Origin: Mollicutes bacterium
GTDB lineage: Bacteria > Bacillota_I > Bacilli_A > RF39 > UBA660
Reading direction: 5' to 3'
DNA: 64,000 nucleotides
Assembly: GCA_012837765.1 (NCBI GenBank)
Contig: DUQO01000018.1
Location: 16,014-80,013 of the forward strand
The notes beneath the pieces are model-generated. The model did not search any database, was not told the DNA's origin, and worked only from the letters and a program-made list of their open reading frames with translations. The translations under genes were made by a program, and so were the position numbers. Shown here one piece after another: positions 18,304 to 49,784 of the stretch (position 1 is its first letter; each line of letters begins with the position of its first letter).

Positions 18304-18330
18304 AGAAAAAAAAGCCTTTTCGGCTTTCTT
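18304..18330 (-). terminator. Rho-independent terminator after mnmE
   Basis: AAAGCC-TTTTC-GGCTTT hairpin followed by a T8 run on the minus strand. Confidence 0.65.
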
Positions 18331-18341
18331 TTAAATTGATA

Positions 18342-19697
18342 CTATTTCCCAAGACAAAATTGCTTGAATAATTCATCAATTAACTCTTCGCTATAGTTTT
18401 CTCCAACTATATTACCCAGCAATTCAAATATCCTTTTTAAGTCAATAGCTAACATATCAATAGGTAAATTGTCGTTTAAAGCAGTTTCTACATCTTTAAT
18501 AACTTTCATAACTTCATTTAGAAGGCCTATTTGTCTTGCATTTGATAAATATGTTAAATCAGCATGTTCTATTTTATCTATGCTAAACAATTCTTTTATC
18601 CTGTTTTTTAAGTTTTCTAAACCGTTTTCAGACATTGTATTTCCATAAATAACGTTTTCACCTTCTAATTTTGATTCATCAAGCTTTGATGGTAAATCAT
18701 CCTTGTTTATAAATATTATTCTCTTCGTTTGTTTTGTTTTCTCTAACAAGTCTAAATCATCTTCTGTAATACCTTCATTATTATTTAATATCAAAATAAC
18801 AAGATCAGTCTCATTTATTAGTTTCATACTTTTAGAAACACCTATTTGCTCAATTTTGTCATCTGTTTGTCTGATTCCTGCAGTATCGATAACATTTAAT
18901 ATTATTCCATCTATATTTACGTCACCTTCTACAATATCTCTTGTAGTTCCAGGTGTATCGGTAACAATGGCCTTTTCTTCATCAATCAATTTATTTAGAA
19001 GACTGCTTTTTCCAACATTTGGTCTCCCAATAATTATTGTTTTAATACCTTCTTTTATTACTCTACTATTTTCGGATTCTTTTAATATTCGTTCTGCTTC
19101 TTCTTTTATACTTTTAATACTTTCCTTTATCATCTCATTGGTAACAACTAAAATGTCCTCATATTCGGGATAATCAATATTTACATCTATATTTATCAAA
19201 ATGTCTCTAACTTTATTTCGTAACGATTTTATTAATTTAGATACTCTTCCTTCAACTTGATTTATTGCTAATTTGCGCATTTTTTCACTTTTAGCATTGA
19301 TCAGATCCATTACACCCTCTGCTTCTAATAAATCAATTCTTCCATTTAAGAAAGCTCTTTTAGTAAACTCTCCTGGTTCTGCTAATCTAACTCCCTTAGA
19401 TAGTATTAAAGAAAAAACCTTATTAGTTGTATTTATTCCACCATGACAATTAACCTCAACAACATCTTCTCTTGTATAAGTCCTCGGTGCCAACATGATT
19501 GACACTAAAACTTCATCAATTATTTCATCTCCATCTACAATATGACCATAATGAATAGTATGAGTCTCTTGTTTTGTTAAATCAGTACCTTTAAAAATCT
19601 TGTTAACAACGTCGATAGCATCGCTTCCACTTAGTCTTATGATAGAAACAGCTCCAACACCAAGTGCTGTTGATATTGCTGCAATTGTATCATTCAT
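18342..19697 (-). CDS. mnmE: tRNA modification GTPase MnmE
   Basis: G1 GRPNVGKSSLLN, C-terminal CLGK. Start set at MNDTIAAIST. Confidence 0.9.
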   Translation of the reverse strand: MNDTIAAISTALGVGAVSIIRLSGSDAIDVVNKIFKGTDLTKQETHTIHYGHIVDGDEIIDEVLVSIMLAPRTYTREDVVEVNCHGGINTTNKVFSLILSKGVRLAEPGEFTKRAFLNGRIDLLEAEGVMDLINAKSEKMRKLAINQVEGRVSKLIKSLRNKVRDILINIDVNIDYPEYEDILVVTNEMIKESIKSIKEEAERILKESENSRVIKEGIKTIIIGRPNVGKSSLLNKLIDEEKAIVTDTPGTTRDIVEGDVNIDGIILNVIDTAGIRQTDDKIEQIGVSKSMKLINETDLVILILNNNEGITEDDLDLLEKTKQTKRIIFINKDDLPSKLDESKLEGENVIYGNTMSENGLENLKNRIKELFSIDKIEHADLTYLSNARQIGLLNEVMKVIKDVETALNDNLPIDMLAIDLKRIFELLGNIVGENYSEELIDELFKQFCLGK

Positions 19698-19771
19698 GTT
19701 TACACCTCCTTTAAACAAAAAAACTTACTCTTTAAATTTATTTTTTTTGTGAAAAAAACGAATAACAGTAA

Positions 19772-19966
19772 TTATTCGTTAAGACCATATTTTTTGTTAA
19801 ATTTTTCAACACGTCCAGCTTTTGAAGTTCTTGTTTGTGTTCCAGTATAAAATGGATGACACTCTGAACATACTTCGACATGAATATCGTCAGTTGACAT
19901 TGTCTTAAAAGTAGCTCCACAACTACATGTAGCTGTAACTTCTTTATAAATCTTATTTTTCTTCAT
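19772..19966 (-). CDS. rpmE: 50S ribosomal protein L31
   Basis: [10 protein letters not shown]...[12 protein letters not shown] matches L31. A terminator hairpin AACGAATAAT...ATTATTCGTT overlaps the stop codon. Confidence 0.85.
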
Positions 19967-23667: not shown

Positions 23668-24192
23668 TTAATTGAGAAATTTATCTATTATTTCTTGAAC
23701 AAAAAACTTATATTCAACTTCTGTTGATTCTTCAGCTTCTAACAAACATAATGGTGGAAATAATACACACCACCAATTACTTCCTTTACCCTCTCCAAGT
23801 TTTACCAATATAGATTCATAATATCCTTCATCATATTCAATACCTTTATATACCTTTTTAGGAAAATAATGAGATCCAAAATTAATATTATAACCAAGAT
23901 TGTAATTTTCTTTTTTAAGAACATCATTTATCTTTTTATCAAAATTATTAAGATTGGTTTTTATAATATTTCTTGCTTCAACAATGTTGTTAGCATCTTT
24001 TAAATAAGCATATACATCGCTTTGTAGTTCTGTTTTAACCTTTTCTTTAATACTTTGATCATAATTAGAATCACTATTAGCAAGAACTCTAAGTCTAATA
24101 GCATCATCAGGAATTATTTTCTTATTTGACGAAACCTCATAAAAAACAGTAAATAATAATGTTAAAATAATACCGCCAATTATTTTTTTCAT
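23668..24192 (-). CDS. spoIIR: Stage II sporulation protein R
   Basis: AIRLRVLANSDS and NWWCVLFPPLC match B. subtilis SpoIIR. Start set at the MKKIIGG signal peptide. Confidence 0.8.
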   Translation of the reverse strand: MKKIIGGIILTLLFTVFYEVSSNKKIIPDDAIRLRVLANSDSNYDQSIKEKVKTELQSDVYAYLKDANNIVEARNIIKTNLNNFDKKINDVLKKENYNLGYNINFGSHYFPKKVYKGIEYDEGYYESILVKLGEGKGSNWWCVLFPPLCLLEAEESTEVEYKFFVQEIIDKFLN

Positions 24193-24238
24193 ATAAAAAT
24201 CCGTCCTCCTATTACATATTGGACAGATTTGCAATTAT

Positions 24239-26151: not shown

Positions 26152-26610
26152 TTATTCTTCTAGTTCATCTTCCTCGCTAATAATTCTTAAATCACTCATA
26201 TCATCTGTATCATCGTTAAGAATGTCGTCTGCATCTTCATCAAGAATATCATCTTCATCTAAATCAAAATCTTCTTCAATTTCTTTTGCCTCTTCTGCAT
26301 CTTCTAATTCTTCTGGTATTTCATCGTATTCTTCTTCACTTTCATCAACAACGATATTTACAACATGATTTTCTCTTAAATCCCAATTAGTACTATTTAA
26401 TAGTATAAATCTTTTATCAGTAGTAAGTGAAGTGAAAAAATCAGCTATTAAACTTTCATATTCACTATCGCTCATTTCTAGCAAATTACAAATTTCTTTA
26501 AATAAAACAACTGTTGTTTTTGGTTCTTTTCCTTGTTTTATAATGTGATATGCAATATCTGTATACGACAATAATTCTAATTCATTTTTATCCATTTTAT
26601 AAATGTCCAT
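26152..26610 (-). CDS. rpoE: RNA polymerase delta subunit
   Basis: FFTSLTTDKRFILLNSTNWDLR matches B. subtilis RpoE [22 protein letters not shown]. Long Asp/Glu-rich C-terminal tail. Confidence 0.85.
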   Translation of the reverse strand: MDIYKMDKNELELLSYTDIAYHIIKQGKEPKTTVVLFKEICNLLEMSDSEYESLIADFFTSLTTDKRFILLNSTNWDLRENHVVNIVVDESEEEYDEIPEELEDAEEAKEIEEDFDLDEDDILDEDADDILNDDTDDMSDLRIISEEDELEE

Positions 26611-28776: not shown

Positions 28777-30699
28777 GTGAAAAAAATAAAATGGTTTCTC
28801 TTTTTTGTTTGTTTTTGTATATATTCTTTCTTTTTTATTCATTATGGTTTTTATTTAGTTGCTAAGTTTACATCTAAAATAGATATTAGAAATGCTAATA
28901 GTGTTTTTTTGTATGATAACAACGAAAACTTGTTTTTTCAAGGTAATGGAAAAAAAGAGTGGATTTCTCTTAACAAGATGTCTAAACATATTATTAATGC
29001 AACTATTTCGATTGAAGATAAAAACTTCTATCACCATGTTGGGTTTGATTATTTAAGAATAATTAAATCCTTATATGAAAACGCAAAATCTAGAAAATAT
29101 GTACAAGGTGCTTCTACTATAACACAGCAATATGTTAAAAACTTATACCTTGACTTTGATAAAAGATGGGATAGAAAGATCGAAGAAGCTTGGCTTACTA
29201 TTAAAATGGAAGTTAAATATTCAAAAGATGAAATTCTAGAAGGCTATTTAAATACTATAAATTATGGTAATGGTGTATTTGGAATAGAAAATGCTGCAAG
29301 ATATTATTTTGATAAGAGTGCTGCAGATTTAACACTTGCAGAAGCATCAATGTTAGCGGGAATTCCTAACTCCCCTAATAACTATTCGCCTTTAAATGAT
29401 GAATTAGAAGCTAAAAAAAGGCAACATGTAATTTTAACAAGCATGGTTAATAATAACTACATAACCGAAGAAGAAAAAAAAGAAGCGTTTGATACAAAAC
29501 TTACATATATAGGCAAAAAAGAAAAATATAATTTATCAACATTAATGTATTATCAAGATGCCGTTATGAAGGAATTATACAATATAAAATATATTCCTTC
29601 TTCATTAATTGAAACTGGAGGTTTAAAAATATACACAAATCTTAATATAGAAGCACAAACTATTTTAGAAAATGCAATTAATAATAATTTAAAAGAAAAT
29701 CAAGACATGCAAATAGCATCAGTTGTTGTAGAACCTAAAACAGGTAAAATAATTGCATTAACAGGTGGACGTGATTACCAAAAATCACAATTTAATAGGG
29801 CTACTCAGTCAAAACGACAAGTTGGATCAACAATAAAACCTTTCCTTTATTATGCAGCTTTGGAAAACGGTTTTACTTCTTCTACAACTTTTTTAAGTGA
29901 ACCTACTGTTTTTACATTTGGTGAAAATGATTCTTATGCACCTAATAATTATGGACAATTATATCCTAATAAGCCTATCTCAATGGCTGCAGCTATAGCT
30001 TTTTCAGATAATATATATGCTGTTAAGACTCATTTGTTTATTGGTGAAGATGTTCTTGTTAAAACGATGAAAAGAGTTGGGGTTAAAGAAAAATTAAATC
30101 CTAATGCCTCTTTACCTCTTGGAACAGGAGAGTTAAATATTATTGATTTTTTAACTGGTTATAATACTATTGCTAATGAGGGCGTTAAAGTTGATCTTCA
30201 TTTAATAAATAAAATTACTGATGCAAATGATAATGTTATATATGAACATAAAAATAATGAAGAAGCTGTACTAGATAAAAATATAACATATATATTAAAT
30301 GATTTACTTACAACAACATATGACTACAATATGCTTGATTATAGTACCCCTACATGTTTAAATATTTCAGCCAAAATATCAAATAAATGGGCTTTAAAAA
30401 CTGGTACAACCGATTTTGATGCTTGGACTGTTGGTTATAATAAAGATTTATTAGTTGGTGTTTGGACAGGATATGATGATAATAAACTTTTAGCGTCAGG
30501 AGAATCAAAATATTCAAAAAATATATGGGTAGATACTGCTGAAGGATATTTGAAAAATAAAGAAGTTAATTGGTATGAAATGCCGGAAAATGTTGTTGGA
30601 ACATTAGTAAATCCGATAAACGGTAATATTAATGACAAAACAAGCAATAAAAAAAGAATTTTATATTATCTAAGAGGTAGTGAACCACAGATAAGATAA
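28777..30699 (+). CDS. Class A penicillin-binding protein (transglycosylase plus transpeptidase)
   Basis: GT51 motifs GASTITQQYVKN and RKIEEAWL. Transpeptidase motifs STIKP (SxxK), SDN and KTGTT. N-terminal TM anchor. Confidence 0.85.
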   Translation: MKKIKWFLFFVCFCIYSFFFIHYGFYLVAKFTSKIDIRNANSVFLYDNNENLFFQGNGKKEWISLNKMSKHIINATISIEDKNFYHHVGFDYLRIIKSLYENAKSRKYVQGASTITQQYVKNLYLDFDKRWDRKIEEAWLTIKMEVKYSKDEILEGYLNTINYGNGVFGIENAARYYFDKSAADLTLAEASMLAGIPNSPNNYSPLNDELEAKKRQHVILTSMVNNNYITEEEKKEAFDTKLTYIGKKEKYNLSTLMYYQDAVMKELYNIKYIPSSLIETGGLKIYTNLNIEAQTILENAINNNLKENQDMQIASVVVEPKTGKIIALTGGRDYQKSQFNRATQSKRQVGSTIKPFLYYAALENGFTSSTTFLSEPTVFTFGENDSYAPNNYGQLYPNKPISMAAAIAFSDNIYAVKTHLFIGEDVLVKTMKRVGVKEKLNPNASLPLGTGELNIIDFLTGYNTIANEGVKVDLHLINKITDANDNVIYEHKNNEEAVLDKNITYILNDLLTTTYDYNMLDYSTPTCLNISAKISNKWALKTGTTDFDAWTVGYNKDLLVGVWTGYDDNKLLASGESKYSKNIWVDTAEGYLKNKEVNWYEMPENVVGTLVNPINGNINDKTSNKKRILYYLRGSEPQIR

Positions 30700-30704
30700 A
30701 TTCT

Positions 30705-32009
30705 TTAATTTTTGTTTATTTTAATTATTACTTGAAAAATATTTTCAAAATCTAATTCTTCTATATTTACTTTAAAATCTGCCTTTTCTAATTTAGTTAC
30801 AACATCCCTTATTGCTGATATAGCACTATTAAAATCTCCCGATACAGGTTCATTTCTGTCAGCACTTAACCCGTTTGTTTGACGATATTCTGCTACTAAA
30901 CTATCAGTAAAAGTTTTAGCTTCCATAGGTTTTGGTTGTTCTTGATTATTATTTTTCAAAAATGGAAAAGAATTAGTTTCTTCATTTTCTTCATCATCAG
31001 GAAAAGTAATAAAACGAGGCTTAGGTTCTGCTGTTTCTTCCACATTAGTAGTGGTAGTACTTTCTTCATTTTTAGGAACTATACCTAATAATTTATTAAC
31101 ATCTGCTTTTTCTGGTTCAGGGTTAATATCTTTTGCTTCTTCTTTTATAAGATTGATGTCAATTTTTTGTATTCCTTCGTTAGGAATGCTTATTGGTGGA
31201 GGAGTTGAGACATTAACGTCTTTCTCTTCTTCTTTAGCTTTTGGTATTTCTATATATGGAATAGGTGCTGATAAACGAGAAGAAATATCATTAAAATCTA
31301 ATGTTTCTACTGGATTATTAATGTTTGGTATATTTTCCTTTGCAATCAAGTTTTGTTTTTGTACTTCCATTCTATTACTTTCATTTTGATTATTATTTGG
31401 ATTATTTATTGATTTTATCATTTCGTCTGTTTGTTTAACAGTTAATCTATTAGTCAAAATTTTATTTAATATTGCTTTTTGATCTTCTTCATTTTTTAAA
31501 TTTAATAAGCTTCTAGCATGGCGTTCTGATATTCTACCATTTAATAAAGCTTCCTTTACTTCACTTGAAAGTCCAAGTAATCTTAGTTTATTAGAAATAG
31601 TTGATTGATTTTTTCCCATTCTAGCAGCTAGTTGTTCTTGTGTTAAATATCCTCTATCTAACAGTTTTTTATATGACTCAGCTTCTTCAAGAGCAGACAA
31701 ATCTTTTCTTTGAATATTTTCTACAATTGCAACTTCAGCACTTGCGTTATCATCTAAATTCATTACAATTGCAGGTACTTTTTGAAGTCCAGCCATTTGG
31801 GCAGCTTTATAACGACGCTCTCCAGCAATAATTTCATATTTATCATTTATTTTTCTAACCACCAAAGGTTGAATTATTCCGTGTTGTTTTATAGAATCAG
31901 CGAGTTCATTTAATGCTTTTTCGTCAAAAGTTAGACGCGGTTGAAAACGATTAGGAATTATATCATCTATAAATAAAGATACTACTTCCTTTTCATATTT
32001 ATCATTCAT
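30705..32009 (-). CDS. ParB/Spo0J/Noc-family protein with long C-terminal extension (434 aa)
   Basis: N-terminal ParB box GERRYKAA with an HTH, followed by an N/Q-rich low-complexity extension. No parA/soj in the window. Confidence 0.7.
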   Translation of the reverse strand: MNDKYEKEVVSLFIDDIIPNRFQPRLTFDEKALNELADSIKQHGIIQPLVVRKINDKYEIIAGERRYKAAQMAGLQKVPAIVMNLDDNASAEVAIVENIQRKDLSALEEAESYKKLLDRGYLTQEQLAARMGKNQSTISNKLRLLGLSSEVKEALLNGRISERHARSLLNLKNEEDQKAILNKILTNRLTVKQTDEMIKSINNPNNNQNESNRMEVQKQNLIAKENIPNINNPVETLDFNDISSRLSAPIPYIEIPKAKEEEKDVNVSTPPPISIPNEGIQKIDINLIKEEAKDINPEPEKADVNKLLGIVPKNEESTTTTNVEETAEPKPRFITFPDDEENEETNSFPFLKNNNQEQPKPMEAKTFTDSLVAEYRQTNGLSADRNEPVSGDFNSAISAIRDVVTKLEKADFKVNIEELDFENIFQVIIKINKN

Positions 32010-32062
32010 GTGGACCCCTCCATATTCTACACTAATTATATAATACTATTAAAAAACCACTT

Positions 32063-32767
32063 TTACAATGGTTTTTTAATAATTTCTTTAAAATGACGAG
32101 GATATTTCTTGTTTATATAATCAATTTTCCTTATTTTTATAAGGGTTCTTTTACTTTTTTCTATTGGAAGGAAAAATGTTGTAATTTGTTCTATTTTGCT
32201 ATTTAATAAATTTAAATTGTTTTCTATTCCTTGAAGTTCTTCTTCAACATTAGATTTCATACTTATAAAATATTTATCAATTTTAACTAAAGGTAAGCAT
32301 AATTCGGTTAATATAGAAAGCTTTGCTACAGCTCGCGAGGTCACAATATCAAATTTATTACGGTTTGTTTTAGCATATTCTTCTGTTCTTATATGTATTG
32401 CTTCAACATCTTTTAATTCTAATTCAGCAATTACTTCATTTAAAAAATTTATTCTTTTCTTTAAACTATCTATCAATACAACTTTTATGTGTGGAAACAT
32501 TATTTTTATTACAAGCCCTGGAAATCCAGCTCCCGTTCCAATATCACATAAATTTTCTACTTCATTAAAATCACATGCTTTAACTAAAGTGAGGCTATCA
32601 TAGAAATGTTTTAAATAAACACTTTCCTTTTCAGTAATATTAGTTAAATTCATTACTTTATTTTTTTCTACTAATAATTCATAATATTTGTTCAGTTGAC
32701 TTTTTTGATTATCATCTATATTTATACCTAATTTAATTATATAATCTATAAATTCATTTTCACACAT
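32063..32767 (-). CDS. rsmG: 16S rRNA m7G527 methyltransferase
   Basis: DIGTGAGFPG SAM motif. 8-nt overlap with mnmG. Confidence 0.85.
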   Translation of the reverse strand: MCENEFIDYIIKLGINIDDNQKSQLNKYYELLVEKNKVMNLTNITEKESVYLKHFYDSLTLVKACDFNEVENLCDIGTGAGFPGLVIKIMFPHIKVVLIDSLKKRINFLNEVIAELELKDVEAIHIRTEEYAKTNRNKFDIVTSRAVAKLSILTELCLPLVKIDKYFISMKSNVEEELQGIENNLNLLNSKIEQITTFFLPIEKSKRTLIKIRKIDYINKKYPRHFKEIIKKPL

Positions 32768-34574
32768 TTGGATAATACTTCCTTAAATAAACAGTTAAAA
32801 TTGATATATCAGATGGATTTACTCCACTAATTCTCATTGCTTGACCAATAGATAAAGGTTTAACTTCTTTTAGTTTTTGCTTCGCTTCACTAGCTAAATT
32901 AGGTATTTTATCATAATCAATATCAATAGGAATTATTTTTGATTCATTCTTCAACATTTTTTGAGCCTCTTTTATTGTTTTTTGAATATATCCTTCATAC
33001 TTTACATTTATTTCTACTTGTTCTAATATTTTTTTGTCACTTTCACTTATATATTCTTTTAGATCTTCTATTTTTATTTCTGGTCTTTTTAATAAAATAT
33101 AAGCATTACATTTATATTCTTTTATATAAAGCTTTTTTAATTCTTCTATTGTATCTTTTAGTTTTTGCTTTTTTACTAATAATTTTGAATATTTTTCTTC
33201 ATCTATTAAACCAACTTGATATCCATATTCCCTTAATCTTAAATCTGCATTATCATCCCTTAGTAACAAACGATATTCTGCTCTTGATGTTAAAAGACGA
33301 TACGGTTCTTTTGTTCCTTTTGTTACTAAATCATCTATTAAAACTCCAATATATGATTCATTTCTCTTTAAAATCAATGGATCTTTTCCTTCTAATTTTA
33401 AAGAAGCATTTATTCCTGCTATCAATCCTTGACCCGCTGCTTCTTCATAACCACTTGTCCCATTAATTTGTCCTGCTGTAAATAAATTTTTAATAAGTTT
33501 TGTTTCTAAACTAGGTTTAACTTGAGTTGGTGATATAGCATCATATTCTATTGCATATGCATATTTTAAAATTACAGCATTTTCAAGACCTGGCAAACTA
33601 TGAACCATTAGATCTTGAATCTCTTTTGGCATACTTGTTGAAAAACCTTGTAGATATATATCATTATAGTGTTTACTTTCTGGTTCTAAAAACAATTGAT
33701 GCTTTTCTTTATCTGCAAAACGAACTATTTTATCTTCAATTGAAGGACAATATCTAGGTCCAATTCCAGTAATATCATCTAAACCGCCATACATACTTGC
33801 CTTATGAAGGTTTTCTCTAATAATTTGATGTGTAAGAGGTGTTGTATAAATTAGATGACATGGTTCTTGGTCTTCAATTTTATAATTTGGTTCATCATCA
33901 AAACTAAAAGCTAATAATTCATTGTCCCCTTTTTCAATTTTAGTTTTACTAAAATCTATAGAATCTTTTTTTATTCTTTGTGGAGTTCCGGTTTTTAATC
34001 TCAATATTTCAAAACCGTATTTTTTTAGATTTTCACTTAAATGAAGTGATGTTTTTTCTCCATCTGGTCCGCTACTTGTTCTCTTACTTCCTACTAAAAT
34101 ATCACTTTTTAAATATGTTCCAGTTGTTAAAATAACTATTTGACTATTTATTTTTGTACCATCATTTAAAATTATACCATATACTTTTTTGTCTTCAACG
34201 ATTAAGTCTTCAACCATTGCTTCTTTTATTTCAAGGTTTTCTTGACTCTTTAAAGTTTTTAACATTTCTTTAGGATACATTACTTTATCAACTTGAGATC
34301 TTAATGATCTTACGGCTGGTCCTTTAGCACGATTTAACAATTTCATTTGAATTTGTGTTTTATCTGCAATTTTCCCCATTACTCCACCTAAAGCATCGAT
34401 TTCACGAACAACAATTCCTTTAGCACTTCCTCCAATAGATGGATTACAAGGAAGAGTTGCTATATTATTTATATTTCCTGTTACTAATAGTGTTTTATGG
34501 TTCTTTTTAGCGCAAGCAAGTGCAGCTTCACATCCTGCATGTCCTCCGCCAACAACAATAACATCATAATTCAT
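32760..34574 (-). CDS. mnmG: tRNA uridine 5-carboxymethylaminomethyl modification enzyme MnmG
   Basis: FAD motif VIVVGGGHAGCEAA, 604 aa. Confidence 0.95.
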   Translation of the reverse strand: MNYDVIVVGGGHAGCEAALACAKKNHKTLLVTGNINNIATLPCNPSIGGSAKGIVVREIDALGGVMGKIADKTQIQMKLLNRAKGPAVRSLRSQVDKVMYPKEMLKTLKSQENLEIKEAMVEDLIVEDKKVYGIILNDGTKINSQIVILTTGTYLKSDILVGSKRTSSGPDGEKTSLHLSENLKKYGFEILRLKTGTPQRIKKDSIDFSKTKIEKGDNELLAFSFDDEPNYKIEDQEPCHLIYTTPLTHQIIRENLHKASMYGGLDDITGIGPRYCPSIEDKIVRFADKEKHQLFLEPESKHYNDIYLQGFSTSMPKEIQDLMVHSLPGLENAVILKYAYAIEYDAISPTQVKPSLETKLIKNLFTAGQINGTSGYEEAAGQGLIAGINASLKLEGKDPLILKRNESYIGVLIDDLVTKGTKEPYRLLTSRAEYRLLLRDDNADLRLREYGYQVGLIDEEKYSKLLVKKQKLKDTIEELKKLYIKEYKCNAYILLKRPEIKIEDLKEYISESDKKILEQVEINVKYEGYIQKTIKEAQKMLKNESKIIPIDIDYDKIPNLASEAKQKLKEVKPLSIGQAMRISGVNPSDISILTVYLRKYYPNV

Positions 34575-34895
34575 AATTTCACCTCCCTTTTTGTCTCACA
34601 TATTATATATGATTTTTTAAAATTTTACTAGTTAAAAATTATTGATTATAATTATAAAAAATAGTACCACATTTTTTGTGATACTATTTTATGTTTAATT
34701 CGTTATATCTAACAATTTAAAAAGTTATCTTACAATTTTTTAAATTCAAGTCCTTTTAACACTACTTTAAAATGAACTTTTTTTTGAATTATCTATCATA
34801 ATTGATATACCTGGTACTGCTATTGCGAGTATTACAGCTAAAAGTTATACCAAGGTAAACTTTTTTTAAACTTATCACTCTATTATAATTATAAT

Positions 34896-37436
34896 TTAAA
34901 GTCCTTCTCCAACAGATAAGACAGCACGAAAGCCATAACCACCACCAAACTCAGCACCCATAAAATATTCAAAATTGAAAGGACCCGCAGAGGCACCACT
35001 ACCATAATAACCACCGCGAATAAACCAAGGATTACTGTTATTTGCCATATAAGAATAGTCTCCATACCATGATGTTGAGCCTGTTCCCACATTACTTGTC
35101 TCATAAAGTGCATCGCCTTTAGACGATATAGTTAATTTATAATTTTCTGTTTGATTATCCGTTTCAGCTACTTCATATACATCTTTATATTTAGAGTGTG
35201 ATATGTAAGCACTTTCACCATATACTGTTAAATATACGTGTGAATTATCTACATAGGCGGATAAATATTCCCAGGCTCCTCCTGACATATCATATATACC
35301 TGTTATATTTCCTGTTGTACTTGCCTTTACTCCATCAGTTGTATGGTACTCATTACAGATACTTTCATTTGTTGCATTTACTCCACTACCTGCACATCCT
35401 GTTTTATTTGAAGTGTTTGAATTATTCCATATTTCATTTGGATTACCATACTGTGATTTAGATAGATATGCTACTGCGCCCCATTCGGTATTCTTCATCA
35501 TATGGGTATCTATTCCATTACCACTGGTTCCCCAGCCATAGATTGAATTAGTTTCCATACTCCTTACTTTGTTAAATATATTATTTACTGATATGTATCT
35601 CCATGAAATTACTCCTGGTACTATTTTAACATTGTTACTTCCGTCATTGCTTGACTCAAATTTTCCTACCCAAATTCCTGTAAGTTCAACACCACCAAAG
35701 GTGAAAGCTGGATGACTTGTCCATGTTCCATTAGAGTCTGTTGCACGCCCTGTATTTACTAATGTTACTGTGCCTCCTAATGTATCATCTATACCTTTAC
35801 TAAATTGAACCTCGATTGTTCCTGTACTAGATGAATGCCATCCTGATGTAATCCTATATATATATCTTGGGATCCAGACCCACATTGAACCATCAGCTGT
35901 TTTAGCATTAGCCCACATCATTTCATCATAATTATACCATTCAGAATCTGACAAACTTGTATTAACCCAGGTTGTTCCATTCCATTTAATTGGGATCATT
36001 CCTTCTGCTAAAATAGGAGCGTTTGCTATACTTTTTTCACGAACATCTATTATTCTTTTAATACTCGTCTTATTTCCACTAAAATCACTAACTACATATT
36101 CAATTTTGTATGTTCCAGGTTTATTTATATTTAAATTACTAATTTTAATTATTTTGTCTGTTATATCCCCATCTACATTATCAATTGCTGTAGCTCCTGC
36201 ATCTACATACTCTTCACCAACATATAGATTTATTAAATTATCACCTAACAATGTGATTACAGGTTTTTCTCTATCAACACTAACAATGTCTTTTATCACA
36301 TATGGATTATCAAATTCACCTGTTCCTCTATCAATATATATATTTCCTTTTAAATTAATAACAGGTCTTGTGTGAATTGTAGTGTTGGCATCAACAGGAG
36401 CACCTAATGAACCAACAGAATTAACAGTCCATACTTTGGTGGAATTATTATCAGGTGTAAGAGTCCAATAATTATAAAAGTTTTTATATAAATAATTATC
36501 ATTTTTACAACTGATTCCATTATCACCTGATGTTTTATATGCTGTCAAACAATTATTATCTAGACTAGCGTATAAATAATCACTTCCATTTAATAATCCT
36601 ATTGATAAATTTGTTGTTTGTGTTACACATTCATTATTTAAAAATGTTGATTTTGTAACTCCACTAGTGCTATAACCTATTTTTCCAACACACCATTTGT
36701 TCGTTTGTACTTTTGCTTTGTTATTTTCACTTATGTTTGAATTGTACCAATTTTGCAATCTTGTCGCTATAGAAACAGAACTTTTATATTCATTTGTGTT
36801 TGAATTATCAAATGTTCCATTTCCTATATTTCCATTTTGTTCTGTTCCTTCTCCTTTTCGTTTTCCTTCATATATTATTTTTATAGAATCATCATTATTT
36901 ATTTTGACAATGCGCCATAAAGAATCATTAAATTCAATCCAATTTTTAGGATTTAATCCTCTATAATAATAAGTATTATTTGAATAATTAAAATGCAAAC
37001 CTGGAGTAGTTCCTGAAACTACATTAGTTGATTCAGTTAATTTATCAACTAAGAAAATTGGTGCATAACAACCTCTATCTTCATAACAAATAGATAATGT
37101 TTTTTTTGTTTCACGAACAACAAAAATCTTTTTAGTTAAATCAATTTCTTCGTCACTTCTAGGATCTTTAACAGGCAATTTTAATAAATTATCTTCTTTT
37201 AAATCATTTAATGACAAACTATAATAATTATAAGTATCAAGATGTTTTTCTATTTCATCACGGTGTCTTGAAACATATAATCTAGCATTATTTTCAAAAC
37301 TATCTATTAAAATATTATATGAATTTTCCTTAGCATTTCTTATCATTTTAAAAACGCTAGGTATAACAAGAGATGATAATATTACAAGTATAACTATTAC
37401 TGCTAATAATTCAACTAATGTAAATCCCTTTTTCAT
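34896..37436 (-). CDS. Large prepilin-type N-terminal domain protein with DUF5011 Ig-like domain and FGE-sulfatase-like C-terminal domain
   Basis: Class III signal MKKGFTLVELLAVIVIL (G|FTLVE). DUF5011 block PVITLLGDN...GATAIDNVDGDIT...PGTY...VSDFSGN. C-terminal motifs NTEWGAVAY, GIYDMSGGAWEY, PWFIRGGYY and GGGYGFRAV parallel the FGE/SUMF1 blocks. Own promoter and RBS AGGTGA. The ORF-track start is a TTG; the ATG is at 37436. Confidence 0.6.
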   Translation of the reverse strand: MKKGFTLVELLAVIVILVILSSLVIPSVFKMIRNAKENSYNILIDSFENNARLYVSRHRDEIEKHLDTYNYYSLSLNDLKEDNLLKLPVKDPRSDEEIDLTKKIFVVRETKKTLSICYEDRGCYAPIFLVDKLTESTNVVSGTTPGLHFNYSNNTYYYRGLNPKNWIEFNDSLWRIVKINNDDSIKIIYEGKRKGEGTEQNGNIGNGTFDNSNTNEYKSSVSIATRLQNWYNSNISENNKAKVQTNKWCVGKIGYSTSGVTKSTFLNNECVTQTTNLSIGLLNGSDYLYASLDNNCLTAYKTSGDNGISCKNDNYLYKNFYNYWTLTPDNNSTKVWTVNSVGSLGAPVDANTTIHTRPVINLKGNIYIDRGTGEFDNPYVIKDIVSVDREKPVITLLGDNLINLYVGEEYVDAGATAIDNVDGDITDKIIKISNLNINKPGTYKIEYVVSDFSGNKTSIKRIIDVREKSIANAPILAEGMIPIKWNGTTWVNTSLSDSEWYNYDEMMWANAKTADGSMWVWIPRYIYRITSGWHSSSTGTIEVQFSKGIDDTLGGTVTLVNTGRATDSNGTWTSHPAFTFGGVELTGIWVGKFESSNDGSNNVKIVPGVISWRYISVNNIFNKVRSMETNSIYGWGTSGNGIDTHMMKNTEWGAVAYLSKSQYGNPNEIWNNSNTSNKTGCAGSGVNATNESICNEYHTTDGVKASTTGNITGIYDMSGGAWEYLSAYVDNSHVYLTVYGESAYISHSKYKDVYEVAETDNQTENYKLTISSKGDALYETSNVGTGSTSWYGDYSYMANNSNPWFIRGGYYGSGASAGPFNFEYFMGAEFGGGYGFRAVLSVGEGL

Positions 37437-37464
37437 CAATTAAATCACCTATTTTCCTGAATTA

Positions 37465-37493
37465 ATGATACCTTTAAAGTTTCTTTAAGTCAA
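37465..37493 (-). promoter_or_regulatory. Promoter of the prepilin-like gene (TTGACT-17-TATCAT)
   Basis: Lies just downstream of the dnaN terminator on the minus strand. Confidence 0.5.
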
Positions 37494-37518
37494 GAAAAAG
37501 AACTTATTAATAAGTTCT
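37490..37518 (-). terminator. Terminator overlapping the dnaN stop codon
   Basis: Perfect 20-bp palindrome AGAACTTATTAATAAGTTCT followed by a T5 run on the minus strand. Confidence 0.6.
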
Positions 37519-38631
37519 AACAGGTACTATTAATTGAATTAAACTTTCATCATTTAAAGCTTTAATTATAAATTGTTTAGTTTCATTTATTAATAACATT
37601 TTTATTTTTTCACTTTGGAAACTTTTTAAAGCTTCCATCATAAACCTTGCATTAAAAGAAATTTTTAAATTATTATTATTATTTTTTTCAACAATTATTC
37701 GTTCTTCTACTTTTCCAACTTGAAGTGTATCACATGAAGTAATCAATTCGTTGTTTGTAATTTTCATTTGAATTATATTTTTATCTGTATCACTTAATAA
37801 AGATGTTCTATCTATTATATTATATAACTCATCTAAATTAACTATTACTTCTATATTGTGTTCGGTTGGAATTAAAGTACTAATATTTGGAAAAGTACCA
37901 TTTAATAATCTAGATTGAAATAATAAATTATCAAATTTAAATATTATTTTATTATTAAAAATATGTAATTCAATCTTTTCATCTTCATTTAATAACTTAG
38001 ATAATTCAATTAAACTACTTTTTGGAATAACTATGTCTATATTATCATTAATGGAATTATCTAAGTTTATTTTTTTAACTGCTAATCTATAAGAATCAGT
38101 TGCTACAGCTTCTAAGATATCACCATCTATTTTTATATTTATACCAGTTAAAATTGGTCTGGATTCTTGCATTGAAGCTGCAAAAGATGTTTGATTAATA
38201 ATGTTAAGTAAATGTTTTTGCTCAAGAATAATTGGAGTTTTAATAAGATCAAGGTTATAATCTGGAAATTCAGTTGCATCTATTCCATTTAAGTTATATT
38301 CTGATGATGGAGTGGTAATTAAAATTTTTAAACCATCTGTTTCTAAATTAATTATTTCGTGAGGAATTTTTCTTGTTATATCAAGTATATATCTTCCTGG
38401 TATAACTATACTTCCAGTTTCATTTATCTCTTGGATATTACTTTTATCTATAAAAGTTTTAATAACAATACTTTCATCACTAGCTTCTAAATATAAACCA
38501 TTTTCATTTAGTGTAAATTTAATACCTGCTAAAACAGGAATAACATTTTTAGTTGATACAGCTCTTGCTACATAATTTAAATTACTTAACAAAATATCCT
38601 TTTTAATTTTTAATTTCATTTTTTCCTCCAT
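37507..38631 (-). CDS. dnaN: DNA polymerase III beta sliding clamp
   Basis: 374 aa immediately downstream of dnaA, beta-clamp three-domain length. Confidence 0.9.
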   Translation of the reverse strand: MEEKMKLKIKKDILLSNLNYVARAVSTKNVIPVLAGIKFTLNENGLYLEASDESIVIKTFIDKSNIQEINETGSIVIPGRYILDITRKIPHEIINLETDGLKILITTPSSEYNLNGIDATEFPDYNLDLIKTPIILEQKHLLNIINQTSFAASMQESRPILTGINIKIDGDILEAVATDSYRLAVKKINLDNSINDNIDIVIPKSSLIELSKLLNEDEKIELHIFNNKIIFKFDNLLFQSRLLNGTFPNISTLIPTEHNIEVIVNLDELYNIIDRTSLLSDTDKNIIQMKITNNELITSCDTLQVGKVEERIIVEKNNNNNLKISFNARFMMEALKSFQSEKIKMLLINETKQFIIKALNDESLIQLIVPVRTY

Positions 38632-38743
38632 TTTTATTATTATTTAAATAATATTATTATTATTATTGTTGTTGATAATGTTGATAAGATGTTTAAAGCT
38701 TTAAATTAAAGACTTTTAGAAATATAAAACTGTTTATAATTTG
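38632..38743. promoter_or_regulatory. oriC part between dnaA and dnaN: two abutting DnaA boxes plus an AT-rich unwinding region
   Basis: TGTTGATAA at 38670-38678 and again at 38679-38687 (TTATCAACA on the minus strand), flanked by (ATT)n runs. Confidence 0.7.
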
Positions 38744-40135: not shown

Positions 40136-40507
40136 TTTACCTTATTTTATAACGTTTTGAACAAAAAAAGTGAAAAAACCTACAAAAAAAGAGTTGTTAA
40201 CATACTTATCAACACCAAAAACCTTATATTTGTAATAAAAAGAAGAGTTATCAACAAAATGTTGTTGATAATAACTTTTTTTATAATAAATTTGATTGTT
40301 GATATTGTTAATAACTCATCAAAACTTATAATAAAAGAAAAAAATTAAAAAAATATCAACAAAAAACCTAATTTATTTTGTCAATAATAAATATTTATCA
40401 ACAAGGAAAATTTTTTTTTAAAAAGAAATAATAAAATAAACCAATATCTTTTATTGACAATGAAGATGTGTTTAATTATAATGTTAATGAATGTGGAGGT
40501 GTATTAA
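40136..40507. promoter_or_regulatory. oriC part upstream of dnaA: cluster of DnaA boxes, plus the divergent dnaA and rpmH promoters
   Basis: TTATCAACA at 40206, 40248 and 40395. TGTTGATAA at 40263. One-mismatch boxes at 40297 and 40353. rpmH promoter TTGACA-17-TATAAT at 40455-40483. Confidence 0.8.
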
Positions 40508-42532: not shown

Positions 42533-42562
42533 AAAAGACGAATTTTTTTCGTCTTTTCTTTA
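42533..42562 (+). terminator. Terminator after jag
   Basis: AAAAAGACGAA-ttttttt-CGTCTTTT. Confidence 0.6.
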
Positions 42563-42606
42563 TATTTATATGTCTTTATGTTAAAATAAAAATAGTAGGT
42601 GATAAA

Positions 42607-43248: not shown

Positions 43249-44199
43249 GTGATGCTTATGAAACAAATAATTTATATTTCACTGCTTCTTATAGCTATTC
43301 CTTTTTTTATTGTCATAATATCATCTTTTGAGGGAGAAATACCAAAAGATGAACAAAAGGAACTAGAAGTTGAAGAAAAAGTATATGTTAGATTAAAAAG
43401 AGAAAAAACAGGAAATATAGAAAAAATAGAATTAGAAGAATATGTGTTGGGAGTATTAGCTGGAGAAATGCCAGTATCTTTTCATATTGAAGCTTTAAAA
43501 GCACAAGCTGTAGCATCACGAAGTTATGTTTTGAAAAGATTAAAATACAACAAAGAAAATGATTATGATGTAGTTGATAGTGTAACAAATCAAGTATATT
43601 TAGATAATTCATATTTAGAAGAAAAATGGTTAGATAAATATAATGAAAATATTGCAAAATTAAAAAAAGCAGTGACTGAAACAAAATTAGAATGTATTTT
43701 TTATGAAGGAGAAATAGCAGATGCTCTTTTTTTCTCTACTAGTAATGGTTTTACAGAAAATAGTGAAGAGATATTTAATAATACTGTTCCATATTTAAGA
43801 AGTGTTGAATCAGTATGGGATGAAAAAACATCTCCTGTTTTTAATGATCAAAAGACATATAACAAAAATGATTTTTATAATATGTTAGGAATAAAAAAGA
43901 GTAAAAAATTAGAAACTAGAATAACTGAGTATTCTGATTCCGGCCGTATAGTAAAAATAAAAATAAATGGTATTGAAATGAAAGGTTCAGATGTAAGAAC
44001 TAAATTAGGTTTAAGATCAACAGATTTTCAAATACAAGAAGAAGGTGAAAAAATAATTATAAAAACTAGCGGATTTGGTCATGGAGTTGGTATGAGTCAA
44101 TATGGAGCTTTAGGAATGGCTAATGAAGGATATAAATATGATGAAATATTAAAATATTATTATCAAGGAATAAGCATTAATAAATATAAAAATAAATAA
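43249..44199 (+). CDS. spoIID: Stage II sporulation protein D (SpoIID/LytB amidase enhancer)
   Basis: YVLGVLAGEMPVSFHIEALKAQAVASRSY matches the SpoIID signature. Confidence 0.85.
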   Translation: MMLMKQIIYISLLLIAIPFFIVIISSFEGEIPKDEQKELEVEEKVYVRLKREKTGNIEKIELEEYVLGVLAGEMPVSFHIEALKAQAVASRSYVLKRLKYNKENDYDVVDSVTNQVYLDNSYLEEKWLDKYNENIAKLKKAVTETKLECIFYEGEIADALFFSTSNGFTENSEEIFNNTVPYLRSVESVWDEKTSPVFNDQKTYNKNDFYNMLGIKKSKKLETRITEYSDSGRIVKIKINGIEMKGSDVRTKLGLRSTDFQIQEEGEKIIIKTSGFGHGVGMSQYGALGMANEGYKYDEILKYYYQGISINKYKNK

Positions 44200-44258
44200 C
44201 TTAATTTTTTTTGTATATTATTCTCATTATTGTTAAAACTCTTAATGAGGTGATATAT

Positions 44259-44894
44259 ATGACACATAAAAGGAAGTTAAAACCCTTTGTAATTCCTATG
44301 CTTTATAGTATTGCTTTTTTAGCTTTTGTAATAAGTTTGTTTTTCTTACGTGAAGCCTTAAACATGCCTGTTTTTGATGAAGATGATGATTATACTTATG
44401 TAAGTAAAACAATTTTTGATGATGATGTTCCTGTTGTTGGTAATACAAAAAGTATTATAAGACCATACAAAGATAGTGAAATAAAAATATTAAAGTATTT
44501 TTATGATAAAGATGCCGAAGTAGATAAACAAAAAGAATCAATTATTTTTTATGAAAACATCTATATGCCTAATTCTGGTGTTGATTATGGGGGAAAAGAA
44601 AATTTTGAAGTTGTTTCCATATTGGATGGAACTGTAATAGATGTAAAAGAAGATGATTTGTTAGGAAAGATAGTAGAAATTAGACATAGTAATGAAATGA
44701 TAAGCGTTTATCAAAGTTTATCTGAGGTTACGGTTAAAAAACAGGATACTGTTTCACAAGGTCAGATAATTGGAAAAAGTGGAACTTGTAATATTTTACC
44801 AGACTTAAAAGATCATCTTCATTTAGAAATAATTTTTAACGGTAAAGTAATTGATCCAGAAAAAGCATTTGATAAAACTATAAAAGATTTATAA
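44259..44894 (+). CDS. spoIIQ: Stage II sporulation protein Q-like M23/LytM-domain membrane protein
   Basis: IVEIRHSNEMISVYQSLSEVTVKKQDTVSQGQIIGKSG matches B. subtilis SpoIIQ VVEVEHADGLSTVYQSLSEVSVEQGDKVKQNQVIGKSG. Retains HLHLEI. N-terminal TM. Start at MTHKRK with RBS GAGGTGA. Confidence 0.75.
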   Translation: MTHKRKLKPFVIPMLYSIAFLAFVISLFFLREALNMPVFDEDDDYTYVSKTIFDDDVPVVGNTKSIIRPYKDSEIKILKYFYDKDAEVDKQKESIIFYENIYMPNSGVDYGGKENFEVVSILDGTVIDVKEDDLLGKIVEIRHSNEMISVYQSLSEVTVKKQDTVSQGQIIGKSGTCNILPDLKDHLHLEIIFNGKVIDPEKAFDKTIKDL

Positions 44895-44963
44895 GGCAGG
44901 AATGCCTTTTTTTATGAATAAAAAGGTTTAAAATTTATATACTTTAACAAGAGAGGTGAGGCA

Positions 44964-45221
44964 GTGAAGAGTGACATTTTAAAAAGGGTTTTAGATGAGG
45001 CTTTTCATATTATTAATACAGAAGACACTATTAGAAATATAGCTAAAGTATTTAATGTAAGTAAAAGTACGGTGCATAAGGATTTGAATGAAAGATTATA
45101 TCAAATTGATGTTAAATTACATGAGAAAGTATCAGAAATTTTAAAGCATCATATAGAAGTTAGACATTTAAGAGGTGGGGAATCTACAAGACAAAAATAT
45201 TTAAAAATAAACAACTCCTAA
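44964..45221 (+). CDS. spoIIID: Stage III sporulation protein D
   Basis: VSKSTVHKDLNERL and VRHLRGGEST match SpoIIID GVSKSTVHKDLTERL and IRHLRGGEAT. Confidence 0.85.
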   Translation: MKSDILKRVLDEAFHIINTEDTIRNIAKVFNVSKSTVHKDLNERLYQIDVKLHEKVSEILKHHIEVRHLRGGESTRQKYLKINNS

Positions 45222-47578: not shown

Positions 47579-48295
47579 ATGCTTCATTTTGTAATCTTTG
47601 ATGACAATGAGTTGATAAGAGAAAAAGTAAACAAAGTAATAACTAAATTAATGTTACCGACGGATATAGAATATAAAACGTTGGAATTTTCCAAATACAA
47701 TAAAAGTTTTGCTCAATTGATAGAAAGAAGAGGAGAAAAGAAAATATATATATTAGATATAGAAGTAGATTCTTACTCTGGTTTGGATGTTGCAAGAAAA
47801 ATAAGAGAGAGAGATTGGGAAAGCATTATAATAGTTTTAACAGCACATTATGAACTTGCATATGATGCCTTTAAAAATAGACTAATGTTGTTAGATTTTA
47901 TTTCAAAATTTGATAATTATGAACAAAATTTATATGATGTTTTAAAATTAGCATTAAAAGCATCACATGTTAAAAAACAATTTTCTTTTACTTCCAATAG
48001 AATGGCATATAGGGTTGATTACGATGATATTTTATATATTATCAAGGATACAGCAAAAAGAAATACAATTGTTAAAACTTTTTCTAAAGAATACCCTGTA
48101 TCACTTAACTTAAATGAAATAATGGCAATGTTGCCAGATAATTTTATTCAAACACATAGAGCATGTACAATTAATAGGGATAATGTAAAAACAATTGATT
48201 TTAAAGAAAACATTATAACATTTATTAATAATGAAAAAATATCAATGTTATCAAAAACATATAAGAAAGAAGTGAAAGAACATGTCTTTAGTTGA
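47579..48295 (+). CDS. LytTR-family response regulator (AgrA-like)
   Basis: Receiver with phospho-acceptor Asp in YILDIEVDS. C-terminal LytTR module ...ILYIIKDTAKRNTIV...QTHRACTIN. Confidence 0.8.
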   Translation: MLHFVIFDDNELIREKVNKVITKLMLPTDIEYKTLEFSKYNKSFAQLIERRGEKKIYILDIEVDSYSGLDVARKIRERDWESIIIVLTAHYELAYDAFKNRLMLLDFISKFDNYEQNLYDVLKLALKASHVKKQFSFTSNRMAYRVDYDDILYIIKDTAKRNTIVKTFSKEYPVSLNLNEIMAMLPDNFIQTHRACTINRDNVKTIDFKENIITFINNEKISMLSKTYKKEVKEHVFS

Positions 48296-49595
48296 TTTGA
48301 TTGGCCCCTCTTTTATCTTCAACATATTTCAACTAAAACTATCATCTGTAATAATAAAAGAAAAAATAGACTTTAAAAACGGAAAAAACATATTTTTATT
48401 TATACTTTTAATAGTAATGCTTTCCTTTTCAACTTTAGTTTTTAATAATTTTTTACGAGTGGTATTCAATTTCTTATGTTTGCTCTTTTTCTATTATTTT
48501 ATTCATAACAAAGGAATAAATGTAGCATTTATCGTTTCGTTTATTGCCTTCTTTTTATTTTTTATGTCAGAAATAATATTTTCTTCAATGTTATACTTTG
48601 TTAGTCAAATATGGGATATATCTATTGATATTGAAAAAAATACATTGCTATATTTAATATCAAATATATCAATTGGTTTTATGGCTATTATAATATATCG
48701 AATAAAAAAAATAAAACAAATTATTTTTACTTTGATTAAAAATTATGAAAAAACCAAATTTACTAAAACCATGTTGATAATACTAATGTTAATTTTTGTA
48801 TTAGTAAATAAAAATTTTTTATTGTTTGATTTTTATTTTGATTATCTTTTGAATCTATTTATTGTAGCGTTATTTTGCTTAATAGCTTATTTATTATTAA
48901 AGGAAAAAAATGCAAATGTGTCATTATCTAAAAAATATGATCAACTGTTTAGTTATTTAGAAAATTATGAAAAAGAACTTAATAAAAAAAGTATAATAAT
49001 TCATGAATTTAATAATCAACTAATTGCTATAAAAGGATTCAATGATAAGAAAAATAAGCATTTAGAACAATACCTAAATTCTATAATTAAAGATAATCAA
49101 AAGGGTGGAGAAAAGTTTCTTGATGATATGGAAAACCTTCCAAAGGGAGGATTAAAAGGATTAATTTATTATAAATTAGGATATCTGAAAGATGAAGGAA
49201 TTAATGTTGTAACTGATATTAGTTCAACTGTTAGAAAAAATGCCTTCGCTAAATTTGATCCTTCTTTATATAGAGATATTTTAAAAATAGTAGGTGTGTT
49301 GTTAGATAATGCTGTAGAGGCTGCAAAAGAATCAAAAGAAAAGCAAATATCATTAGAAATCTTTTGTACTAAAAATGATTTTAATATTGTATTATCTAAT
49401 ACCTTTTGTAATAATATTGATCTTGAAAAAATAGATGAATCAAAATATTCGACAAAAGGTAAGGATAGGGGATATGGACTTGCATTAGTAAAGCAAATAG
49501 TTAAAGATAATCCTAAATTGCAAGTTAAAAAAGAAATAATTAATAATTTCTTTGTTTCGACATTAACAATTGAACTAAAAAACACTTCTAATTAG
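48282..49595 (+). CDS. AgrC-like (HPK10) membrane sensor histidine kinase
   Basis: Six N-terminal TM helices, H-box IIIHEFNNQLIAIKG, GHKL motifs LLDNAVEA and GYGLALV. Confidence 0.7.
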   Translation: MSLVDLIGPSFIFNIFQLKLSSVIIKEKIDFKNGKNIFLFILLIVMLSFSTLVFNNFLRVVFNFLCLLFFYYFIHNKGINVAFIVSFIAFFLFFMSEIIFSSMLYFVSQIWDISIDIEKNTLLYLISNISIGFMAIIIYRIKKIKQIIFTLIKNYEKTKFTKTMLIILMLIFVLVNKNFLLFDFYFDYLLNLFIVALFCLIAYLLLKEKNANVSLSKKYDQLFSYLENYEKELNKKSIIIHEFNNQLIAIKGFNDKKNKHLEQYLNSIIKDNQKGGEKFLDDMENLPKGGLKGLIYYKLGYLKDEGINVVTDISSTVRKNAFAKFDPSLYRDILKIVGVLLDNAVEAAKESKEKQISLEIFCTKNDFNIVLSNTFCNNIDLEKIDESKYSTKGKDRGYGLALVKQIVKDNPKLQVKKEIINNFFVSTLTIELKNTSN

Positions 49596-49611
49596 ATAGA
49601 AGTGTTTTTTA
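49578..49611. terminator. Bidirectional terminator between the convergent kinase and agrD
   Basis: Perfect 13-bp inverted repeat AAAAACACTTCTA / TAGAAGTGTTTTT. Confidence 0.65.
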
Positions 49612-49616
49612 GATTA

Positions 49617-49751: not shown

Positions 49752-49784
49752 AATATTCCTCCCTTCTCATTCTTTATCAAATCA

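Follow-up and report, generated by a model that had tools for sequence, protein, structure and literature searches.

Two inversions across the replication origin, a predicted Noc-lineage protein lacking the membrane helix, and a conserved cluster of parS and Noc-binding sites in a low-GC member of the Bacilli

How does the gene order around a bacterial replication origin (oriC) come to be rearranged, and what is the role of a ParB-family gene that is found there with no parA beside it? These questions are raised by a stretch of 64,000 nucleotides, referred to here as the window, from the genome of an organism deposited as Mollicutes bacterium (assembly GCA_012837765.1, contig DUQO01000018.1, positions 16,014 to 80,013). 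In this DNA mnmG, rsmG and a gene for a 434-amino acid (aa) ParB-family protein lie downstream of dnaN, and mnmE lies some distance away next to recF, gyrB and gyrA. An earlier note made from the sequence had read this as a rearrangement of the Bacillus order with an orphan ParB. The account that we consider probable is that the order was generated by two successive inversions that spanned oriC, that the 434-aa protein descends from Noc, the nucleoid occlusion protein, and that a separate ParB that binds parS is encoded outside the window.

The window spans oriC, as the sign of the GC skew switches at ~40 kb, the two arms diverge, with dnaA and dnaN transcribed leftwards and rpmH-rnpA-yidC-jag rightwards on the opposite arm, and the DnaA-box variant TTATCAACA is clustered in both spacers that flank dnaA, with two copies in the dnaA-dnaN spacer (38670-38687) and four in the dnaA-rpmH spacer (40206-40403). 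There are no copies of the perfect DnaA box TTATCCACA in the window and, across the whole window, the number of DnaA boxes is not above chance; only the clustering of TTATCAACA beside dnaA is informative. NCBIfam and Pfam scans confirmed all of the genes named in the earlier note, and the arrangement it described is as stated: mnmG, rsmG and the ParB-family gene follow dnaN on the same strand with rpmH-rnpA-yidC-jag on the other arm, mnmE adjoins recF-gyrB-gyrA, and recF is coupled to gyrB with no gene between them, the recF stop codon overlapping the gyrB start codon as ATGA.

For the comparison with relatives, the surroundings of homologues of Noc and RecF were taken from independent assemblies, and the window-type order is common to at least six of these. 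In loci L008, L012/L013 (GCA_002411005.1) and L017, with Noc proteins that are 64%, 53% and 48-49% identical, respectively, to the window protein, dnaA-dnaN is followed by a pilin-like gene or by none, then by mnmG-rsmG-noc and a convergent gene for a penicillin-binding protein (PBP), and then by DUF1934-argS-prfA-prmC-spoIIR-mntP-fba-murA, with argS and DUF1934 each absent in some. The other side of the rearrangement is seen in L035, L036 and L037 (RecF 73, 70 and 65% identical), all of which have rpmE-mnmE-recF-gyrB-gyrA-tadA-dnaX-ybaB-recR. As the same junctions are present in the independent assemblies of these relatives, the order is fixed in a clade; it is not specific to this genome and was already present in the ancestor of the clade, an outcome that the earlier note had itself named as one that would refute its reading. 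The rearrangement is an old, clade-wide event of a known kind.

All three orders on a path of two inversions are found in extant genomes, and the earlier suggestion of inversions across oriC is borne out. The ancestral state is seen in L158, in which oriC separates recF-comK-dnaN-dnaA from rpmH-rnpA-yidC-jag-mnmE-mnmG-rsmG-noc. The rpmH arm of L010 (CAG:433) matches that of L158 apart from inserts at two places, mnmE/mnmG and noc/PBP gene. The first inversion, with breakpoints at mnmE/mnmG and dnaN/recF, would have left dnaA-dnaN-mnmG-rsmG-noc on the opposite arm to rpmH-rnpA-yidC-jag-mnmE-recF-gyrBA, and the second, with breakpoints at jag/mnmE and rpmE/rpiB, would then have shifted ~19 kb (mnmG to rpmE) to a position between dnaN and mnmE-recF. 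The order that this path predicted for the intermediate was subsequently found in L159 (GCA_036681025.1, JAXDEL011767819.1), which has noc-rsmG-mnmG-dnaN-dnaA on one arm, rpmH-rnpA-yidC-jag-mnmE-recF-gyrB-gyrA on the opposite arm, and a Noc-like protein of 499 aa. That two successive oriC-spanning inversions produced this now fixed gene order, with L158 ancestral, L159 intermediate and the window final, is therefore well supported, and all genes remain co-directional with replication throughout the path.

Symmetric inversions around the replication origin, visible as X-shaped genome alignments, are reported to have been described by Eisen et al. (2000) and by Tillier & Collins (2000). As in those, the breakpoints of each inversion identified here are on opposite replichores, and the strand of each gene relative to replication is kept. 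In contrast to such inversions in general, both events occurred within 10-30 kb of oriC and reshuffled the most conserved origin block, and an extant intermediate has been located. Two features of the window are not products of these events. There is no remB between recF and gyrB, an absence previously counted as part of the rearrangement, and remB is also lacking at this position in relatives with a Bacillus-like order. In all sampled relatives in which that side of noc is visible, the next gene is the convergent PBP gene and not soj-spo0J, with noc and the PBP gene directly adjacent except in L010 and L018, in which there are inserts; the loss of the adjacency of noc to soj-spo0J predates the inversions.

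The 434-aa protein has a CTPase-type N-terminal domain, a helix-turn-helix DNA-binding domain, a long linker and a C-terminal domain. Pfam identifies ParB_N (PF02195) at 121 bits and HTH_ParB at 116 bits, and the top NCBIfam match is TIGR04285, nucleoid occlusion protein, at 298.4 bits, or 306.7 bits for a construct with the linker deleted, which aligns to the full model (positions 1-255 of 255). With the same model the relatives score 287-299 bits and the controls, Noc and Spo0J of Bacillus subtilis, 373 and 258 bits, respectively. The closest solved structures, both by sequence and by fold, are those of Noc from Geobacillus and Bacillus (7NFU, 7NG0, 7OL9). Residues G63, E64, R65, R66, E97, N98, Q100 and R101 are invariant in an alignment of 56 sequences, with the GERR and ENxQR motifs so preserved, and the third arginine of GERRxRA is replaced by a lysine, K68, that is also invariant. 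Over its last 45 residues the protein aligns with B. subtilis Noc, in the C-terminal domain, and not with Spo0J, and AlphaFold2 predicts this part with pLDDT (predicted local distance difference test) values of 88-94. The adjacency of rsmG and noc is present in all of the relatives examined. When a genome collection was scanned with peptides from variable regions of the protein, true relatives were recovered only as L017 and L018, the remaining matches being to unrelated ParB-like genes of Clostridia.

The residues that discriminate between parS and Noc-binding sites (NBS) were established by Jalal et al. (2020) as R173/T179/A184/G201 for parS and Q173/K179/K184/R201 for NBS, with Q173 reading adenine 1 and R201 reading cytosine 6; a single lysine at 179 or 184 suffices, and R173 is always kept in parS binders. 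The equivalent positions in the 434-aa protein are Q135, K141, G146 and R163. The 56-member alignment has Q135 and R163 without exception and K141 in >90% of the sequences, and the glutamine and arginine are present in 102 of the 102 homologues with a readable motif. The residues for NBS specificity are therefore in place, given that one lysine suffices, and the R173 and small residue at 201 that are characteristic of parS specificity are not, Q135 and R163 being invariant. Taken with the perfect NBS in the window, these features agree with the earlier description of the protein as Noc-like: its sequence identifies the gene as a descendant of noc, and the protein very probably binds NBS. With Noc of B. 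subtilis and Geobacillus thermoleovorans (7OL9, 7NFU, 6Y93) it shares the ParB-type CTP-binding N-terminal domain, a helix-turn-helix domain with the equivalents of Q173, K179 and R201, a C-terminal dimerisation domain, a gene position downstream of rsmG and an identical 16-bp NBS in the genome.

There are also departures from Noc. Only 18 residues precede PNRFQPR in the 434-aa protein, in comparison with 39 in B. subtilis Noc, as the family starts ~22 residues later and the amphipathic membrane-targeting helix and helix alpha-2 are missing. A GGAGGGG ribosome-binding site is located 6 nt upstream of the start codon and, as this site and an upstream stop codon fix the start, no longer N-terminus is possible. 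The additional length of the protein, described previously as an N/Q-rich C-terminal extension, is in fact internal, with an N-, E-, P-, I- and K-rich composition, and is followed by the conserved and confidently predicted C-terminal domain. AlphaFold2 assigns this linker pLDDT values of 40-66, mostly <55. Linker length varies from 130 to 300 aa among the relatives, and the whole proteins from 287 to 554 aa, with islands of conservation in the linker that include VETLDF, IDINxIKExAxDINP, ADVNxLLG, RFI followed by an acidic run, and TDSLVxEYRQ. In contrast to Bacillus and Geobacillus Noc, a long, motif-bearing linker lies between the DNA-binding domain and the C-terminal domain, lysine is missing from the fourth specificity position and the TIGR04285 score is under the curated cut-off; and, unlike the B. 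subtilis noc locus, soj-spo0J is not adjacent. As the membrane helix is missing and the curated score is not reached, the protein is classified as a Noc-lineage variant rather than as a member of Noc.

The earlier note had recommended a search for parS at palindromes near 12.4 kb, and two perfect 16-bp parS sites are present there, starting at 12423 and 12461, ~27.8 kb from oriC, where none is expected from shuffled sequences. A perfect 16-bp NBS starts at 12358, 49 and 87 bp from the two parS, and there is a second within ybaB. Two perfect NBS in 64 kb compare with none expected by chance, and they hold the only CCCGGG hexamers in the window. The NBS in ybaB uses the codons CCC GGG despite a GC content of 28%, the value across the 64-kb window, and is at the same place in L014, L035, L036 and L037. 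As an Rfam scan of the gyrA-tadA spacer identified nothing except the signal recognition particle (SRP) RNA, the palindromes do not belong to a known RNA.

The NBS at 12358 is conserved in L035, L036 and L037. In L035 (15526-15621) and L036 (15571-15710) the same three sites are present as in the window, with the intervening sequence diverged and a single mismatch in one L036 parS. The 1.3-kb spacer in L037 (15519-16696) has five perfect parS with seven perfect and two near-perfect NBS, several arranged as NBS-11 bp-parS units, although a tandem-repeat finder resolved no repeat unit in this array. L159 has parS and a near-perfect NBS at the same place. Public metagenomes were scanned for parS with an NBS 6-36 bp away, which identified at least 120 loci (L038-L157), and all 120 of those listed, with GC contents of 0.19-0.38, have both sites, often amplified, in clusters of up to 10 parS and 9 NBS. 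For 115 of the 120 listed, gyrA, tadA or dnaX is ≤2.5 kb away; of the other five, three are contigs of <2 kb without recognisable genes and two have the cluster at the end of the contig, several kb from dnaX. Many of the listed loci with the cluster have the ancestral dnaA-dnaN-recF-gyrB-gyrA order, which dates the cluster to before the inversions; the second inversion shifted it from ~9 kb to ~28 kb from oriC. Downstream of gyrA, this composite parS/NBS cluster is conserved across a wide radiation of low-GC Bacilli, whatever the order of genes at the origin. It is the most interesting result of the analysis and lies outside the region, 30705-37439, with which the earlier note was concerned. 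No report of juxtaposed parS and NBS was found in the literature searched, which is weak negative evidence.

The spacing of the two types of site appears not to be random. In the 120 listed loci, which are not phylogenetically independent, the distance from the centre of an NBS to that of a neighbouring parS has peaks at ~26, 36, 46-47, 58 and 69 bp, values close to n + 1/2 helical turns at a ~10-bp interval. For 180 distinct spacers of 20-50 bp, a range free of search bias, the resultant is 0.44-0.46 at periods of 10.5-11.5 bp, whereas 5000 uniform draws gave at most 0.27. The spacings of 65 and 38 bp in the window do not fit this ~10-bp rule. Overall, the pattern is suggestive of NBS and parS being helically phased on opposite faces of the DNA.

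Which protein, then, occupies the parS sites? A separate Spo0J-type ParB is implied because parS is conserved while the recognition residues of the 434-aa family exclude parS by the published rules, and we infer that a parS-binding ParB, with or without a ParA, is encoded outside the window. A six-frame search of the window with B. subtilis Spo0J identified the 434-aa gene as the single ParB-family match. As previously noted, the 64 kb have no parA; a six-frame tblastn search of the window with B. subtilis Soj had a best E value of 1.1 and there are no KGGxGK[ST] (deviant Walker A) motifs. The claim that this is the only ParB-family gene thus holds for the 64 kb, but beyond it the perfect parS argue for another ParB. 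The designation as a stand-alone or orphan ParB is not retained, as conserved parS imply that separate ParB and a neighbouring parA is not expected for a Noc. Of the features of a canonical ParABS system, a partner ParA gene was not found in the window or in the fetched loci, and the 434-aa protein lacks the N-terminal ParA-contact peptide; parS sites are present near the origin, and belong to the genome but not demonstrably to the 434-aa protein.

There is a precedent in Staphylococcus aureus, which has retained Noc and ParB without ParA, as would be the case here with the second ParB that the parS sites imply. Its Noc is membrane-associated and lacks a long linker, in both respects unlike the 434-aa protein, and no conserved interleaved parS/NBS cluster was found reported for S. 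aureus in the literature searched. In S. aureus noc also follows rsmG, with parB elsewhere in the genome.

Several observations weigh against the combination of a Noc descendant with a separate ParB. That second ParB is reached by inference, and six-frame searches of the window and of 159 fetched loci (~1.4 Mb, mostly origin-proximal, with ~10-30 kb around the origin per genome) identified no Spo0J-type ParB and no Soj. At 298.4 bits, or 306.7 with the linker deleted, the 434-aa protein falls short of the curated TIGR04285 cut-off of 315 bits, and its fourth specificity position is G, with N, A, S or T in relatives, rather than K. The N-terminal amphipathic helix that is a hallmark of Noc is absent, and a hydrophobic-moment scan of the linker gave no convincing amphipathic or relocated membrane helix. 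Nucleoid occlusion in B. subtilis depends on the N-terminal membrane-targeting helix and so, with this helix missing, occlusion by the known route cannot be assumed. The B. subtilis reference sequences were entered by hand, and control scans with them gave the results expected.

The absence of a second ParB or a ParA from the window and from the fetched, mostly origin-proximal DNA would be explained if the 434-aa protein were the only ParB-family protein of the lineage, with dual specificity for parS and NBS, and functioned as a centromere and occlusion factor without ParA. The two sites are always neighbours, with spacing peaks at approximately every 10 bp, and variants with dual specificity exist in the mutational scan of Jalal et al. 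(2020). In that scan, however, parS binders invariably have R173 and dual binders mostly T or S at 201, whereas this family has invariant Q and R. There would also be no need to keep two distinct perfect palindromes if one protein read both, and the sampling covers only the ~10-30 kb around each origin. Dual specificity is, on balance, unlikely.

It is less likely still that the protein is the stand-alone ParB of the earlier note, a canonical chromosomal ParB (Spo0J) that acquired a tail and whose ParA was lost. The match to the generic ParB/RepB/Spo0J domain model does reach 184 bits, the NCBI name is "ParB/RepB/Spo0J family partition protein", and ParB is present without ParA in other Firmicutes (S. 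aureus, Streptococcus pneumoniae); the fold and CTP motifs are also those of Spo0J, and perfect universal parS are near the origin. But the Noc model exceeds the ParB domain model by 114 bits, in comparison with 32 bits for B. subtilis Spo0J, and the recognition residues are the Q and R of Noc rather than the R and G of ParB. An alignment of the N-terminus revealed no counterpart of the ParA-contact peptide of B. subtilis Spo0J, there is no adjacent parA, the C-terminal domain is that of Noc, and the gene occupies the noc position after rsmG. Least probable of all, to the point of being almost negligible, is that the order results from a metagenome mis-assembly or from a recent event private to this genome. 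The organism is uncultured and known from metagenome assemblies alone, but the same junctions are present in independent assemblies from different samples and from species with Noc proteins only 48-64% identical, and GC skew and gene strand are coherent across all junctions.

With a Noc descendant and a separate ParB as the preferred reading, the 434-aa protein would most likely nucleate on NBS, close as a CTP-dependent clamp and spread, with the spacer downstream of gyrA an origin-near loading site for both ParB and Noc. Its output, the weakest step in this scheme, would probably be through a partner that binds the linker motifs rather than by direct membrane binding. As a speculation to which we attach limited confidence, ParB and an anchor-less Noc might be loaded side by side at the gyrA-tadA cluster, which would then be centromere-like, with this Noc a linker-motif adaptor at the origin and not a genome-wide membrane tether; in the extreme version, a sole ParB-family protein would serve both sites.

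Table 1. Locations of genes, domains, junctions and sites in the 64-kb window
Feature	Position	Strand	Remarks
Noc-lineage ParB-family gene, 434 aa	30705-32009	minus	directly downstream of rsmG
CTPase-type N-terminal domain (residues 8-100) and helix-turn-helix DNA-binding domain (102-202)	31404-31988	minus	
Linker, residues ~203-385	30855-31403	minus	internal, ~180 aa, mostly disordered
C-terminal domain	30708-30854	minus	helix and two strands; aligns with B. subtilis Noc C-terminal domain
parS TGTTTCACGTGAAACA, two perfect 16-bp palindromes	12423-12438, 12461-12476	none	gyrA-SRP RNA gene spacer
NBS TATTTCCCGGGAAATA, perfect, 16 bp	12358-12373	none	gyrA-SRP RNA spacer
Second perfect NBS	9893-9908	none	inside ybaB coding sequence
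Junction dnaN/mnmG	34575-37506	minus	holds lineage-variable 847-aa protein gene
Junction mnmE/recF	18189-18341	minus	made by first inversion; L159 has jag-mnmE-recF
Junction rpmE/mnmE	19719-19771	minus	made by second inversion
Junction jag/rpiB	42533-42606	plus	made by second inversion; same in L012, L013
oriC, bipartite, flanking dnaA	38632-40507	none	DnaA-box variants and GC-skew sign change
dnaA	38744-40135	minus	profile match
dnaN	37507-38631	minus	profile match
847-aa open reading frame	34896-37439	minus	prepilin-type N-terminal methylation motif, DUF6273, immunoglobulin (Ig)-like domain
mnmG	32760-34574	minus	profile match
rsmG	32063-32767	minus	profile match
Class A PBP gene	28777-30699	plus	convergent with noc
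rpmE	19772-19966		adjoins rpmE/mnmE junction
mnmE-recF-gyrB-gyrA block	12662-19718	minus	recF/gyrB 4-nt overlap (ATGA)
mnmE	18342-19718	minus	profile match
recF	17052-18188	minus	profile match
gyrB	15133-17055	minus	profile match
gyrA	12662-15121	minus	profile match

Between dnaN and mnmG is an open reading frame (ORF) for an 847-aa pilin-like protein that the earlier note, accurate for the gene order in this interval, did not mention. The C-terminus of this protein has a weak FGE-sulfatase-like match. The gene encodes 846-847 aa in relatives, 469 aa in L012, and is missing from L017 and L159; it was inserted later at the dnaN/mnmG junction. Another ORF with an Ig-like domain is located at 62576-63274.

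Exact copies of the window proteins were found solely in assemblies from biogas-digester and similar metagenomes. NCBI labels these organisms "Mollicutes bacterium" or "Bacilli bacterium", and the "Mollicutes" label is misleading given the class A PBP and the sporulation genes spoIIR, spoIID, spoIIID, spoVT, bofA, yabG, spoVG and yabP (23668-24234, 43249-45221, 1892-2419, and in L014). In L014, which was followed for ~8 kb beyond the left end of the window in the search for the second ParB and a ParA, only the Bacillus-like metS-tatD-ksgA-yabG-veg-spoVG-divIC is present. A T-box leader (1622-1804, minus strand, 107.9 bits) precedes a dUTPase gene, with metS next in the extended contig. An agr-like quorum-sensing module at 47579-50390 combines a LytTR response regulator and a GHKL histidine kinase with AgrB, which is encoded on the opposite strand. 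A 152-aa protein encoded between argS and prfA (26152-26610, minus strand) has no Pfam match and is kept in all relatives with 47-85% identity. The SRP RNA gene (Rfam RF00169, 61.5 bits; 12208-12305, minus strand) overlaps the 5′ end of the longest tadA-like deaminase ORF (11794-12231, minus strand), and the deaminase start must therefore lie downstream of the GTG at 12231.

As an extant genome has the intermediate order, the history of this rearrangement is resolved unusually well, and it documents that even the dnaA-dnaN-recF-gyrBA block can be broken. A family that descends from Noc and recognises NBS, as its residues predict, but has no membrane helix would have a second output that is independent of the membrane, or would reach the membrane by another route. 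Known models separate the loading of ParB from that of Noc; the interleaved cluster downstream of gyrA predicts a direct interplay of two CTP-dependent clamps.

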